Origin: Eledone cirrhosa
Lineage: Eukaryota
NCBI GenBank assembly: GCA_964016885.1
Contig: OZ024746.1
Location: 97,960,001-98,024,000, forward strand
Direction of reading: 5' to 3'
Length of the DNA: 64,000 nucleotides
The translations under genes and the position numbers were made by a program. Each line of letters opens with the position of its first letter. Within the stretch, counting starts at the first letter, position 1. Shown one piece after another: positions 351 to 61,715 of the stretch. Under the pieces are notes generated by a model. That model made no database searches and was not told the DNA's origin. It saw nothing but the letters and a program-made list of their open reading frames with translations.

Positions 351-586
351 TTAATATGTGTAGAAGTAAACACAATAAACCCATGTCTAAAATTTCGAGG
401 GTAGATTACACCACAAATGATATATATCAACCTGAATCATATGGGATGTTACAACAAATATATATATTTATAACAGATTCGAAGCACTCGACAAGTTTTC
501 TGGAGTAAAATATCAATGATATTATAAAACTTGAACCGTTAAGGTCTCATTCCTGGATATGTCACTATTTATAAAACAAGCTTTGT

Positions 587-642
587 ATTTTATCTGATAA
601 GAGCGTATAAGTTTTGGTAGCCTTGAAATATATATAATAGAA
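587..642 (+). ncRNA. Degenerate hammerhead motif, same family as 1225-1288
   Basis: TTTTAT-CTGATAA(G8A)-...cctt-GAAA-TATATA-TA-ATAGAA. Confidence 0.5.
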
Positions 643-812
643 TAAATATGGTTTTATAAATATAGTTTCCATTTATTAATATCATTGATATATATATATA
701 TATATACTGAAGTAAAAGTTAAGTGGAAATATCCAAGAGGACGAGTTTAGTATAAATAATTACATCAGTGACATAGATTTAAAAAAAATTTTTTTTTTAA
801 TTTTTTCTCATG

Positions 813-861
813 ACAAGCTGAACGAATTGAGGCCCAAAGCCAACGAAACTTGGGTACCTGT
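813..861 (+). ncRNA. Hammerhead-like motif with one-nt core insertion, inside an inverted-repeat element (705-954)
   Basis: ACAAG-CTGAACGA-attg...caac-GAAA-CTTGGG-TA-CCTGT. A related copy at 60132-60184 has palindromic CTTAAG as stem III. Confidence 0.45.
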
Positions 862-1224
862 TTATGTCACTGTTGTAATTATATATACTAAACTCGTCCT
901 ATGGACTGTGTGCTCCTACTCTTGGATATCTCCACTTAACTTTTACTTCAGTATATATATATATATATGATGAGGTCATAGCCATTCAATGGCTATCATC
1001 GAAATATAAATAGCAGTAAATAAAGGATTGAGTTCATGCAATTGACTTATGTTTCATCACTATATATATATATATATATATATATATATATGCAGAGGTT
1101 ATATTTAATTTGTTAGGATCCAACAAGCTTAAACATTTTATAACTGATATAAAGCACTCAACTAGTTTGTGGAGTAAAGATTCAATATATTAATAAATGG
1201 AAACTATATTTATAAAACCATTTT

Positions 1225-1288
1225 ATTTTATTATATATATTTCAAGGGCAACCAAAGCAAATTATGGTGCGCTTTCATCAGATAAAAT
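1225..1288 (-). ncRNA. Minimal type I hammerhead ribozyme motif (Penelope-like terminus)
   Basis: Minus strand: TTTTAT-CTGATGA-aagcgcacca...tggttgccctt-GAAA-TATATA-TA-ATAAAA; palindromic stem III. Confidence 0.7.
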
Positions 1289-56882: not shown

Positions 56883-57669
56883 GCATACTCCAGTCCCACA
56901 AACTGTAGAGTGCTTCTTATCCGATATCTGCATTGCTTTATTGTACTACAATAAAACTCACCTCCTACATATATATATATATATATATATATATATATAT
57001 ATATATATATATATATCACCAGTATCATTCTCTCGTCTGTCGTTGAGGAAGTTTTTCTAGAACGATGTTCACTACTTTATAATGAGAACTGTTTCAACTG
57101 TCTTCCATTACTGCAATGGAATGGATCTCCGTCGATGTCAACGATGAGTATTCCAGTTGTTCGATCAACGGAGCAGCCTACTTGTAAAGTTAATGTGCAA
57201 ATGGCTAAGTATTCCACAGACATGTGTATTCCCTTAACGGACTTCGCAGGGAGATTCAGCATGACACTGCGTGTAACAAAATCAGACCTTCGAATTACAC
57301 TTACCGTCCATTCTAGGGTAGTGTATTGGCAGTGTCAGTACAGTGTCGGACAACATGATTTGCAGCATAGAGTTATGTCCTTTTACGTTCTAAGTTCAAA
57401 TCCCGCCGAGGCTGGCTTTGCCTTCCATCCTTACGAGGTCGATAAAATAAAGTACTAGTAACGCACTGGGGTCGATTTAATCGGGTTTCAAAATAATTTC
57501 CGTCTATCAAATTTCACACAGAAAGTTTGGATTGGAATGTAGAGAGCTTCTGAAGTGACCTTGTCGTCCAGTTAACACAATCAAGACCATATAACACAAC
57601 TGGTAGGATTTAAGTATCAAAGATCTTAGCCTTCAAATGATAGGAAACTCGTTTTGATGTTAGTACTTC

Positions 57670-58040
57670 CTTGTTTTTGTTGAAAGCAGCCCAACCTAGA
57701 GCGAAGCGATATTGCACAGCAACCATTCCAGAACCACATCATGAGACTTATGACTGGCAAGCGGCTCAGCGACCGTATCTGTATCAGTGAGCTGCTCAAC
57801 ATTACCAAACTTAGACCAATTACATCAATTGTCAAGTCAAAAGTACTCAAACTATACAGTCATATAAAAAGATCATCTCGTGGTTATGCCTAGAAGGAAG
57901 GTTGGCTGGTAGGAGAAGCAGAAACCGGCAGCCAAAACGATGGTTTAACAATGTCAATTTATGGACTGGACTTGATCTTTGTTCTTTGACTCTGCTGCTG
58001 GTGATCGAACTTTGTGAAGAGAGATATCACATGTTAATGT
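57670..58040 (+). mobile_element. Decayed RTE-like LINE 3' fragment
   Basis: ...VKSKVLKLYSHIKRS...LEGRLAGRRSR.RQPKRWFNNV..WTGL...AAGDR.LW. Confidence 0.6.
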
Positions 58041-60255
58041 GCAGTCTGTAACTGGCGGGGTTTAGCGTAAAAAAAAAAGTTTGGATTGACCTGGCTAGGG
58101 TATATGACACTTAACCAAAATACCACGCTTTTGGGATCGAACCAGAAAGCTTATAATTGCAAAGTGAACTTCTTAACCATTCAACTGTGCTGTGTCAATT
58201 TATCCATTTATTAATCAGTAAGAGAAATCAATATTAATTGATGACCTGGTACAGTGGAGACATTCCCAAATTCCGGGAACGTGACTTTTTTCAATTTAGC
58301 TTTGCTAAAACTAACGACATTACCTAAAGGAGTTGGTATTCTATATCGTATACAAACTCTATCTCCTTACACTGTGGTATCAAATATGGATTATCCATCC
58401 ATTAAAAAAGAGAGAAGAAAGATTTATCTATTGATGCAGGCATAGTTGTCTGGTTAAGGAATGAATTCGTTTTGCAACCATGTAATTCTGGGTTTTGTTC
58501 TTTTATTCCGTACCTTCGACAAGTCTCTTCTACTACAGCCCTGAGTTGAGCTGAGCATGGCATTGTGAGTAGTATTGGAGAGAAAAAAATTTCATAACTA
58601 TGTTGCATATATATATATATATGTTGTTGTTGTTGTTGTTGTTAGAGCTCACACCTATGTAGGTTTAGCTGGTCTCATTGGAAGTTCGAGAATTGAACTC
58701 ACAACCTTTCGATTGCAAGCCCAATGCTCTAACCACTAATTCTCAGATCGGGTGATGTGTTGTTTTCTTGAGCAAGACACTTTATTTCACGTTGCTCCAG
58801 TTTACTCAGCTGTAGAAATGAGATGATAGGACTGGGGTTTCTATCCTTAAAAACACCCAAGAAACCTCAAATGAGATGCAACCTAGGAGGAAGCCAGCTA
58901 AACCTACATAGGTGAGCCTACACTAACTTCACATTACACTCCCTGGATATATATATATATATATATATATATATATATATATATATATATATATATATAT
59001 ATATATATATATATATATATATATATATATATATATATATATCCAGGGAGTGTAACGTAGGTTCACCCAGGTGAAGACTAGATGTTGAGGTTCACGTCAG
59101 TGGCGACGTGTAGAGCTAAGCAGAGTGAAATATAATAATTATTTCTGCTTTTGGCGCAAGGCCAGCAATTATCCCAGTGCGTAACTGGTACTTTATTTTA
59201 TCAACCCCGTAAGGATGAAAGGCAAAGTTAACCTCGGCGGGATTTGAATTGAGACCGTAAAGGGACGTAACTCTATGCTGCAAAGCATGGCGTCCGACTC
59301 TCTACTGATACTGCCATATACAAGGACGATTTGTTAAGCCTTCATTACGTTTATTGTTTGATGGTTCTGTCATTACTGCAGCAGAGATCCGACGAGCTTT
59401 TGATTCCAGAGTTGGGCCAGATCGATACAGATCGAACCTTGAGCTGATCAATAACGAAACGCGCATCACCAATCAATAAACGTAATGAAGATTTAACAAA
59501 TCGTCCTCGTATTATATATATAAATATATAATTGTGTGTGTGTGTGTGTGTGTGTGTGTGTGTGTGTGTGTGTGTGTGTGTGTGTGTGTGTGTGTGTGTG
59601 TGTGTGTGCGTGCGTGTGTGTGTGTGTGTGTGTGTGTGTGTGTGTGTGTGTGTGTGTGTGATTGTGTGTGTATTATATATATATATATATATATATATAT
59701 ATATATATATATATATATATATATATATATACACATTTTATCGGAATGCAGCTTTAGCACTCGATAGAGAATAACACCCAGAGTAATAACAATACGTTTA
59801 GACAGCTTTGCAAATCAAATATAGCGACCGACAGTCTGGCCGCATTGCCATAGCAACGAAAATGGTAGGACTCAGGAAAATATATATATAGGAAAATGTA
59901 TGACAACTGTAATACATTTTCTTATTACCCACTCTACTACCCTAAGTATTGAGTACTCTGGTTGTTATGGTCCATCTGGTTCCTTACCACAACTCCTTCG
60001 TTATATATATATATATATATATTTACTGTAGTATAAATTTGGTTGAAATATCCAAGGGTAAGAACACTCAGTCATTAGGGTGGGTTAACTCATTCAGCCT
60101 GTTATATAAAAATAAATTTTCTTTTCATATAACAGGCTGAATTTGGGGTGAATAACCCAACGAAACTTAAGTATAAGTACCTGTGTATGTCGTTGTTGTA
60201 ACTAATTATATATATATATATATATATATATATATATATATATATATATATATAT

Positions 60256-60298
60256 TACGAGCTGAGGATCCGCTAAGGTGAAACAATTGTTCTCTGTA
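60256..60298 (+). ncRNA. Minimal hammerhead motif in a short element between (TA)n tracts
   Basis: TACGAG-CTGAGGA-tCCgctaaGGt-GAAA-CAATTG-TT-CTCtGTA. Confidence 0.6.
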
Positions 60299-61715
60299 TG
60301 GTGAACTAACTGTTGTGTAACCACTTCTACCTAACTCGTCCCATGGACTGAGTGCTCTACCACTACGGATATTACCTTCCAGTGTTCTACCACTATATAT
60401 GTTCTACCACTATATATATATATATATATATATATATATATATATATATATATATATATATATATACACGTGTGTGTGTGTGTGTGTGTTTGTATCTCCG
60501 TGTCTGTGTCTATGTATCGTAGTTTGATGCTTCGACAAAAAAGACACCAATAAACTAAGTACCAGAGTGAGAAAAATGAGTACTGGGGTTGATATGATAG
60601 ACTAAATCATGGCAGTGCCCTAGCATAGCCACGGTCTAATGACTAAAACCAGTAAAAGAGAAAATCACACAAATTCAAGTTATATCAATTACATTCAATG
60701 GATTTATCAGGCTTTACTATGCTTAGTCATGTATTTCTTCAATGAATTTTCGAAGAATTGTATCCTGTGACAAATTCGAGTTGATATTAATTGAATTAGT
60801 TTTGTTAACATTTCTGAAGCAATCCAAAGATAGTTTAATGCAGATAGTATAGGCCATTGTGGAATAATCAACTGATATTTGAAATAAATATAAAAATATT
60901 TTCTGCATTTTATTTCGATCATGTTATAAAACGGAATACTGAGGTGGGATTCAATAAAAAAAAATCTTTATATATTTAGTATATATATATTTTTTAAAAC
61001 TATCTTTAAAACTATTATTTCTTTGATTAATGCGTTTAATCTATTTGAAACTATCAAATTATAACGTAATCTTAATCGTTAACCCCTAATTTAGTGCCTT
61101 GTCAACGGATGATAGATAGTACAATGTTTTTATACCCATTTTGATACCAAACTGCCTGAAAACGTTCCCGGTTCTTCGATACAAATCAATATATTTTAAA
61201 GTGCTGATATTGATCTATAAATCCCTTCCGTTATATTGTTATATTTCGCGAGGGCCATGTTGCCCTAATATTGTCACTATTTGGTTGGGCTTTCATTTCA
61301 GTATATTTTCCTTCTCTTTCTCAACCGCGTTCCTGCTTACGGCAGTTCTAATGGAGATGTTTTAACGCAAAGTCACACAAGGATTAGCAAAATGGCGATT
61401 ATCACTTTGAAAGAAACAATTATGCAATAAATAGTTGTTATTGACACGTCTCGCATCCTCATTTGGCAATGTGTAAAATTTTAGCGAGATCGGGTGAACA
61501 ATACGCAAGTTATAATACTTTACACACACAGACAGAACGGGACTTATATAGTATATATATATATATATATATATATATAGGAACCAGTAAGACCCCGACA
61601 GCTGAGCTCAAGCCGTTTCGACGGCTAATTCTGGACTTACTGGAAGGTAATATCCTATATATATATATATATATTAAATAAATGGAAACTATATTTATAA
61701 AACCATATTTATTCT

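Follow-up and report, generated by a model that had tools for sequence, protein, structure and literature searches.

Scattered along a 64,000-nt stretch of the Eledone cirrhosa genome (GCA_964016885.1, OZ024746.1, 97,960,001-98,024,000, forward strand; hereafter, the window) are copies of a short hairpin, ACTC...GAGTGCT, many of them downstream of a hammerhead ribozyme, raising the question of what carries this hairpin and what it does. A preliminary description listed nine copies, placed them next to hammerheads in otherwise unrelated families, and proposed a conserved cis-acting RNA structure, acting either as a reverse transcriptase (RT) recognition or priming signal or as a tertiary partner of the ribozyme.

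The hairpin in the window and in the genome

All nine sites were found within 1-2 nt of where they had been placed, those at 892, 35348 and 12849 being decayed copies with a broken outer stem. The association with the hammerhead held for six of the nine, which have a same-strand core within 170 nt and a GAAA 43-68 nt before ACTC; the sites at 484, 59931 and 12849, without such a core, are 5'-truncated or inverted arms. Further copies had been missed, namely one at 59757-59784 (-) and two of a GCTC type at 41251-41277 (-) and 41690-41733 (-). Searching the window with ACTC-N10-22-GAGTGC gave 7 matches, compared to 0.70 ± 0.82 expected (100 shuffles, none of which reached 7); the strict match at 22701 has neither a (TA)n run directly after it nor a covariance-model match.

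Genome-wide, ACTC-N10-22-GAGTGCT occurs 83,153 times (5,306 for the reversed pattern) and GCTC...GAGCRCT 27,295 times (control, 2,120), and the mismatched combination ACTC...GAGCRCT stands at 8,298 versus 8,036 in the control. ACTC/GAGTGCT is one spelling of a broader motif, RCUC-stem-loop-U(N) bulge-GAGYRC. An Rfam scan of the window returned no family at gathering score, and none of its 65 sub-threshold matches (miRNA models and one snoRNA model) fell on the hairpin as such. No published description of the hairpin was found in the literature searched, where figures or supplements of earlier papers could show related structures; the supplement text of PMC11167929 gave no match.

Penelope-like elements and their twin hairpins

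The families had been regarded as unrelated, which was wrong as to their origin, since every family traced to a gene is a Hydra-clade Penelope-like retrotransposon (PLE), the carriers so traced being truncated ends of these elements. The elements themselves are already known: the Hydra clade of C-terminal EN+ PLEs (Craig et al. 2021, PMC8557442) has a single ORF of about 710 aa with RWK, DKT, CxCX5C, CxxC and CxH motifs, a hammerhead in the pLTR, a (TA)n target, inverted 5'-truncated copies and a one-sided tail. All of these features were seen in E. cirrhosa, where, however, the tails measure 60-100 nt and contain a hairpin, compared to 30-40 nt in the published clade. One locus (L191) encodes a single 710-aa ORF with RWK at 37, DKT at 114, YRDDG at 346, CxCX5C, CxxC and CxH at 555, 658 and 689, and a GIY-YIG-like motif at 574; RW[KR] and DK[TS] each recur in 118/120 homologues, and RW[KRI] is present in the junction ORFs of the window families. 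Another locus (L192) holds a hammerhead-to-hammerhead unit of 2,805 nt. Judged by eye only, the L191-type ORF resembles Hydra-1_Obim. A Pfam search of the Hydra-type ORF gave no match, and a homologue has a fold matching that of RTs, TERT among them; Foldseek returned a general RT fold only (DRT9, TERT, retron; TM 0.2-0.36) and nothing on hairpin binding. The hammerhead, for which Rfam gave no match, is a type I core predicted by pattern (13,489 versus 0 in the control for one lineage), starting UUGA in one family.

Intact 5' junctions revealed a second hairpin, absent from the preliminary description: they run from the hammerhead to hairpin 1, then through 36-69 nt to hairpin 2 and, 14-63 nt past its end, to the ATG. 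From the hammerhead core to hairpin 1 there are usually 30-70 nt (range, about 30 to about 200 nt). The two-hairpin pattern occurs 2,251 times in the genome (control, 336), and 20 of 30 fetched loci continue into a Hydra ORF start. Among the 5' regions of distant metagenomic relatives (39-50% protein identity to the query), 22/40 have two hairpins and 35/40 at least one (shuffles, 0/800 and 11/800, respectively), while 5/40 have none. In the published consensi, inspected by eye, the motif appears twice before the ATG in Hydra-1_Ajap and once at the 3' end in Hydra-2_Ajap and Hydra-2_Amil, is degenerate in Hydra-1_Crog, and is not clearly present in Hydra-1_Amil or Hydra-1_Obim; the word 'hairpin' does not occur in the main text of PMC8557442. 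A search based on GLYRDDGL had flanks too short to extend to the 3' hairpins at more than a few loci. Viral contigs yielded no relatives, and the 14 matches in prokaryote genomes probably reflect host DNA that contaminates MAGs and symbiont assemblies.

Within the window, PLE ends on the plus strand lie at 818..951 (hammerhead with a core insertion from 818, decayed hairpin 1 at 892-913, end at (TA)n), at 35282..35410 (hammerhead 35282-35304, decayed hairpin 1 35348-35368) and at 60262..60393 (hammerhead 60262-60283, hairpin 1 60334-60355 with a 1-nt bulge, end at about 60393; family not traced to an ORF). Long, tailed ends occupy 1091..1281 (-; hammerhead 1240-1281, hairpin 1 1154-1175, end 1091; family junctions L023 and L230) and 12581..12780 (+; hammerhead 12581-12623, hairpin 1 12692-12719, end 12780). 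The hairpin 1 at 484..506 (-), identified by motif and covariance model, belongs to the inverted arm of an AT-rich Hydra-PLE end, whose partner short arm at 583..688 (+) has a decayed hammerhead core and ends in (TA)n just before the expected start of hairpin 1. Head-to-head insertions were found at 12802..13000 (long minus arm with decayed hairpin 1 at 12849-12874 and end at 12802, short plus arm ending at 13000; family junctions L212 and L218), at 56537..56969 (short minus arm 56537-56655 with hammerhead 56598-56644, long plus arm with hammerhead 56782-56828, hairpin 1 56887-56913 and end 56969; family tied to a Hydra EN in L069 and to a Hydra ORF start in L176 and L211) and at 59891..60001 (short minus arm ending at 59891, plus-strand hairpin 1 59931-59956, long end 60001). 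A further hairpin 1, at 59757..59784 (-), has no canonical hammerhead core within 170 nt, and its family was not traced to an ORF.

The window also holds a decayed C-terminal fragment of a Hydra-type ORF (20149..20943, +; tblastn E 9e-24, 29%), downstream of which no hairpin was seen up to 22350. A GIY-YIG fragment at 62109-62459 was rejected as a partner, being a member of another, motif-less PLE family. In the other hammerhead-bearing PLE family the motif was found at 0/30 loci in the 520 nt after the EN; an analogous repeated hairpin there was likewise rejected, the only candidate junction (L089) being single in the genome and 20 more loci lacking a shared continuation.

Compensatory changes and copy ends

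The predicted structure comprises an RCUC:GAGY stem, a 3' U(N) bulge and 1-4 further variable pairs, followed by RC, with weak predicted folding energies (about -2 to -9 kcal/mol) and a length of 18 to 77 nt. Compensatory changes across families were observed at four base pairs, counted with end-anchored columns because MAFFT misaligned the short hairpins. Among 68 family-level rows, pair 5 is U-A in 31, C-G in 31 and A-U in 1, i.e., Watson-Crick in 63/68 versus 31.6 when shuffled, and pairs 6 and 7 are Watson-Crick in 49 and 43 rows (shuffled, 20.9 and 17.4, respectively); slid registers, serving as a control, gave 2-17. In the model-fitted metagenomic alignment, pair 5 is C-G in 29 and U-A in 22 with 0 unpaired. 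Pair 1 is G-C in 48 rows, A-U in 19 and G-U in 1, its A-U form being confined to hairpin 1 of the E. cirrhosa genome and thus possibly reflecting few events; possible A-C exceptions at this pair are hairpin 2 of L276, one cluster (left out of the 68 rows) and one recurring family.

The sites at 59931 and 12849 belong to the same family (85% identity downstream), and other site pairs are 34-74% identical downstream, most of them close to what shuffling gives (mean 54%, 95th percentile 63%). Since family flanks have diverged to near-random identity, the motif is conserved in excess of descent. Neutral common descent without function, to which the shared Hydra ancestry of all traced families would lend itself, is already contradicted by the covariation: the stem is kept by compensatory changes in elements with near-random flanks and a protein identity to the query of 39-50%, and we give this account next to no credence.

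Genomic ends, which are only a proxy for cDNA start sites, lie at a fixed distance from the hairpin. Among copies ending in (TA)n, 206/213 terminate -15..+3 nt from a hairpin start, mostly at -6 to -10 (the survey covered 349 matches, of which 136 do not end in (TA)n: 32 read through and 104 are unclassified), and 19/24 metagenomic ends lie at -11..+6. Alternative TATA/ATAT 4-mers occur in most reference sequences, yet are seldom used as ends. Together with the covariation, this fixed position supports the view that the hairpin is a conserved cis-acting structure. About half of the arms keep the whole hammerhead and end before hairpin 1, and 42/43 head-to-head insertions pair one arm ending before hairpin 1 (short) with one ending before hairpin 2 (long); short+short and long+long pairs were both absent, and the same held in all four locus-selection classes.

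These arrangements bear on the suggestion that the hairpin regulates the minimal hammerhead or serves as its tertiary partner. Hairpin 1 does usually lie 30-70 nt past the core, and the hammerhead of PAc, a PLE from Anolis, needs a protein that is possibly bound near a start site (PMC11167929). However, the hairpin comes in two copies at spacings of up to about 200 nt, short arms retain the hammerhead without it, and the other hammerhead-bearing PLE family of the window lacks it (0/30 loci in the 520 nt after the EN), making such a role highly improbable. Expression offers a different account, in which the hairpins act as an internal promoter, or in translation initiation on uncapped hammerhead-cut RNA, and ends are set only by nearby UA microhomology. 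The proximity of hairpin 2 to the ATG, the promoter reported in PLE pLTRs (PMC8557442) and an enrichment of U and A at -6/-5 relative to the hairpin start agree with it; nonetheless, it leaves the 42/43 short+long pairs unexplained, other TA-like sites in the same RNAs seldom serve as ends, and an ORF-less family retains both hairpins, and we regard it as improbable.

A candidate signal for reverse transcription

Of the functions proposed for the hairpin, RT recognition or priming fits best, given that copies terminate a short way 5' of either hairpin. Judging from sequence, this predicted and conserved stem-loop with its bulge, of which the 5' UTR of Hydra-clade PLEs holds two copies, probably binds the RT at each of its two positions and makes cDNA synthesis begin internally, a few nt to its 5' side. 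The GIY-YIG domain would cut both strands of the (TA)n target, and UA-rich RNA just 5' of the hairpin would pair with the 3' end released by the cut. Initiation 5' of hairpin 1 would leave the copy without a tail, and initiation 5' of hairpin 2 would give it one of 60-100 nt, hairpin 1 included. If two RT molecules each took one hairpin and one target strand, head-to-head insertions with a short and a long arm would result. A copy begun at hairpin 2 never includes that hairpin, so a full-length copy with a tail would have to come from a tandem or circular template, which would fit the published hammerhead-circle model.

PAc (Poseidon, Anolis; Frangieh et al. 2024, PMC11167929) initiates reverse transcription internally at two sites bounding the tail, with an AT-rich target, extension of both target strands, an upstream hammerhead and a predicted dimer; the study named no conserved signal at the two start sites. 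The E. cirrhosa elements resemble it in the two tail-bounding sites, the AT-rich target, the inverted (both-strand) products and the upstream hammerhead, and differ in having a duplicated motif in the 5' UTR, 3' of each end.

The main rival is recognition at the DNA level: the GIY-YIG endonuclease would read the hairpins as DNA (single-stranded cDNA, second strand or extruded cruciform), cut a few nt 5' of each and so trim both ends. This would explain the same end positions, and Craig et al. (PMC8557442) ascribe the tail to EN-mediated resolution; moreover, the D. virilis Penelope EN is cited in PMC11167929 as having required the tail for recognition. The GIY-YIG nuclease SsnA of the Ssn/NTS system (PMC11893778) binds a single-stranded DNA hairpin, relies on a C that directly follows the palindrome, reminiscent of the RC after our stem, and cuts a few nt upstream; being a bacterial, standalone nuclease with no RT, it offers a resemblance only. 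A strand test of RNA versus DNA counted 15 G-U to 3 A-C pairs (null, 10.4 to 2.3; p 0.04-0.08) and does not discriminate between the two forms. On the other hand, hairpins of 18 to 77 nt are too variable in length for a dsDNA site of fixed spacing, cutting alone does not predict one short and one long arm, and the two genomic ends of PAc coincide with RT start sites measured on RNA in vitro (PMC11167929). We consider endonuclease recognition unlikely.

Returning to RT binding, it is quite possible, if short of probable, that the two hairpins form a paired RNA landing pad, holding two RTs on one RNA so that each primes one strand of the (TA)n double-strand cut, and that they act as a portable, clade-wide signal letting ORF-less retrozyme-like units travel. 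Every two-armed insertion would then be one short plus one tailed cDNA, and any RNA could be written into (TA)n with defined ends.

Stem-loops that recruit RT include those at the 3' ends of L2/CR1 LINEs and their SINEs, the R2 3' UTR and hepadnaviral epsilon. Like the Hydra hairpins, these are small cis elements with few fixed bases that fix the start of reverse transcription; in contrast, each start there has a single stem-loop, which either sits at the RNA 3' end or close to it or templates from its bulge, whereas Hydra PLEs have two, with the putative start upstream of the stem. Template choice and the optional one-end tail of PLEs have been a puzzle for two decades, and an RT start at each of two hairpins would explain why the tail is one-sided. 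With a clade-wide covarying motif that predicts both ends as well as the pairing of a short with a long arm, the question comes within reach of a handful of point mutants. How PLE RTs recognise RNA also bears on the origins of telomerase, whose RT is their sister group. For curators, the hairpins give the true unit boundary of Hydra elements and account for a motif present more than 100,000 times in the E. cirrhosa genome.

They are also a candidate signal for mobilising ORF-less hammerhead units, such as that at 41201..41752 (-), about 550 nt long and without an ORF in its sense-strand frames. This unit keeps hairpin 2 (41690-41733), a predicted type I hammerhead (41481-41529) and a GCTC-type hairpin 1 (41251-41277), and ends in (TA)n. 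It fits the animal non-LTR retrozymes, ORF-less hammerhead units from PLE pLTRs, for which the portions of PMC7229834 and bioRxiv 10.64898/2026.07.22.740005 drawn on here name no mobilisation signal; its family differs in forming dispersed partial tandems only rather than long arrays. Relatives 85-89% identical, in L023 and L039, display the hairpin 1-hairpin 2 junction.

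A bulged hairpin with covarying stem pairs

The preliminary description had listed nine sites in the window at which ACTC and GAGTGC(T) enclose a variable interior downstream of a hammerhead ribozyme. All nine are present, three of them as decayed copies. A same-strand hammerhead core lies 43-68 nt upstream at six of the nine; the three sites without a core are truncated or inverted arms. Where 0.70 matches to the strict spelling ACTC-N10-22-GAGTGC would be expected in the window, there are seven; the spelling ending in GAGTGCT has 83,153 matches in the 3.0 Gb genome, compared with 5,306 for a reversed control pattern. 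Identity between the flanks of different families is mostly near random, and in 464 kb of unselected sequence a (TA)n run follows within 130 nt of 36 of 52 strict matches, compared with 17% of random positions.

The shared architecture consists of an outer stem of 4 bp, a bulge on the 3' side whose first base is U, additional pairs and a loop that varies. Both sides of the first stem pair change: GCTC...GAGCRCT is enriched 12.9-fold, whereas the mismatched ACTC...GAGCRCT is not (1.03-fold). We compiled a 68-row table in which each family has one or two entries: 48 rows came from 27 of 28 junction families (two matches lying over 200 nt from the ATG were dropped and one start was corrected by hand) and 20 from 20 of 34 end clusters, the other clusters being already represented or judged not to be element ends. 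Watson-Crick combinations exceeded those in shuffles at pair 1 (67 rows vs 40.2), pair 5 (63 vs 31.6), pair 6 (49 vs 20.9), pair 7 (43 vs 17.4) and pair 8 (26 vs 18.3), and slid registers gave 2-17; these counts are not probabilities, because the rows are related by descent. The invariance of CUC, GAG and RC in the table is circular, since these belong to the search pattern, and is covered instead by the shuffle test of metagenomic 5' regions described below. The bulge U (63/68 rows) and the U after GAGYRC (62/68) were not demanded for junction rows, but some loci were fetched with patterns containing them. One of the end clusters judged not to be element ends has a possible A-C first pair; separately, a recurring family with ACTC...CTAGAGAGCGCT (G000 C1), a candidate Hydra end, would carry such a pair.

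In the window, a covariance model recovered seven of the nine sites together with 59757, a pair of GCTC-type copies around 41.2-41.7 kb and one weak match. It also gave 81 matches in 34 metagenomic loci; in the model-fitted metagenomic alignment, pair 5 was C-G in 29 cases, U-A in 22 and unpaired in none. The conserved cis structure proposed earlier is supported by covarying pairs in both table and alignment. The motif is a real, covarying cis element, carried by a retrotransposon clade already known, and is apparently undescribed: Rfam has no entry for it, and we found no description in the literature searched, which lay outside subscription journals and Repbase reports.

Hydra-clade elements as carriers

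At one fetched locus (L069), the family of site 56886 stands after the endonuclease end and 3' UTR of a Penelope-like retrotransposon (PLE). Two motifs in tandem were matched 2,251 times in the genome (336 for the control), and in 20 of 30 fetched tandem loci the second motif was followed by an ORF start with an RW[KRI] motif. An intact 710-aa ORF, with 1,326 homologues at E<=1e-30, bears the Hydra-clade marks given by Craig et al. (PMC8557442). Across 21 families, 36-69 nt separate hairpin 1 from hairpin 2, and 14-63 nt lie between the end of hairpin 2 and the ATG; the A-U form of pair 1 occurs only in hairpin 1 of the Eledone cirrhosa genome. Among the window sites, 1154, 56887 and 59931/12849 have families that belong to the junction families; no ORF was linked to the families of 892, 12692, 35348, 59757 and 60334.

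The hammerheads themselves vary. In the 59931/12849 family (L212, L223, L225), the core starts with UUGA in 7/8 matches whose 5' part is present, which could represent a U3-A8 version of the C3-G8 pair in a candidate hammerhead. The hammerhead at 818-849 (+) has several extra bases inside its CUGA-N-GA core, and a unit like it occurs in inverted orientation near 60100-60190. No canonical core was found within 170 nt of 59757-59784 (-) or of end clusters 7, 14, 19-22 and 25, using a pattern that misses long stem II and variant cores.

An ORF-less unit of ~550 nt at 41201-41752 (-) keeps hairpin 2, the hammerhead and hairpin 1, with no long ORF in its sense-strand frames. Two relatives (85-89% identity; L023:262-913 and L039:9387-9999) contain the hairpin 1-hairpin 2 junction, and the family occurs in partial tandems. 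We consider it a candidate non-autonomous Hydra derivative, resembling animal non-LTR retrozymes (PMC7229834; bioRxiv 10.64898/2026.07.22.740005).

Beyond this genome, 92 metagenomic and MAG loci yielded 48 distinct 5' regions, 40 of them long enough to score: 22 had two hairpins, 13 one and five none, as against two hairpins in 0/800 and at least one in 11/800 shuffled regions. The metagenomic spelling is almost always GCTC...GAGCAC. Hydra PLE sequences within prokaryotic MAG and symbiont assemblies (L319-L332) are probably host contamination. In the PMC8557442 supplement, inspection by eye shows the motif in three of the six Hydra consensi published (sea cucumber, coral), with a degenerate form in the copepod consensus; a search there for four 9-mers from the 3' half of the motif yielded seven matches, four in Hydra termini and three inside other elements, a count that may be low as line breaks could conceal matches.

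Copy ends and a model for their placement

When 349 matches were mapped to ten junction references, 213 proved to end in (TA)n; another 32 continued into the body, and the remaining 104 were left unclassified. In 206 of the 213, the (TA)n run begins between -15 and +3 nt from hairpin 1 or 2, mostly at -6 to -10; copies seldom end at the other TATA/ATAT 4-mers of these references. Metagenomic loci agree, with 19/24 internal ends at -11 to +6. Even where the interior of hairpin 2 spans ~65 nt (L192), with closing stem and bulge kept, long copies still end ~6 nt before it. We also examined 43 head-to-head insertions that end in (TA)n on both sides: 42 combine a short arm (ending before hairpin 1) with a long, tailed arm (ending before hairpin 2), and none is short+short or long+long. 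This rule recurred in 9/10 cases in unselected blocks, and also when loci had been chosen through hammerhead, hairpin or other queries.

Layout, covariation, end positions and the short+long rule are direct observations; we infer that each hairpin probably binds the reverse transcriptase (RT) and sets its start a few nucleotides 5' of the hairpin, where UA-rich RNA would pair with the cut (TA)n. The PLE tail would then be the sequence between the two starts. Two RT molecules, each with one hairpin and one target strand, could produce the short and long arms, with tandem or circular RNA placing hairpin 2 behind a full-length unit, a step in keeping with the hammerhead-circle model that Cervera and de la Pena published (PMC4209133). 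A precedent for internal starts is the Anolis Poseidon PLE, for which PMC11167929 reports two internal start sites matching genomic ends and extension of both strands. The main rival is that the endonuclease recognises the hairpins as DNA, for which SsnA offers an analogy (PMC11893778); our G-U test did not separate RNA-level from DNA-level recognition. That the hairpins serve expression, or act as partners of the hammerhead as suggested previously, fits worse. RT placement by the hairpins would give the motif a specific link to the PLE tail, open to test.

Other repeats in the window

A further PLE family of high copy number has its 3' end at 61879-61907 and 62109-62607 (-), with a Pfam GIY-YIG domain and a CxxC linker; we take it to be Neptune/Nematis-like. 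It has two alternative ends ~58 nt apart, and a first look at the genome gave 33,287 candidates. Although this family is hammerhead-bearing and tailed, the RCUC/GAGYRC motif was absent from the 520 nt after the endonuclease in 30/30 loci. Minisatellites with units of 47, 29 and 31 nt, in 27-54 copies, occupy 26481-28367, 51826-53393 and 45654-46485.
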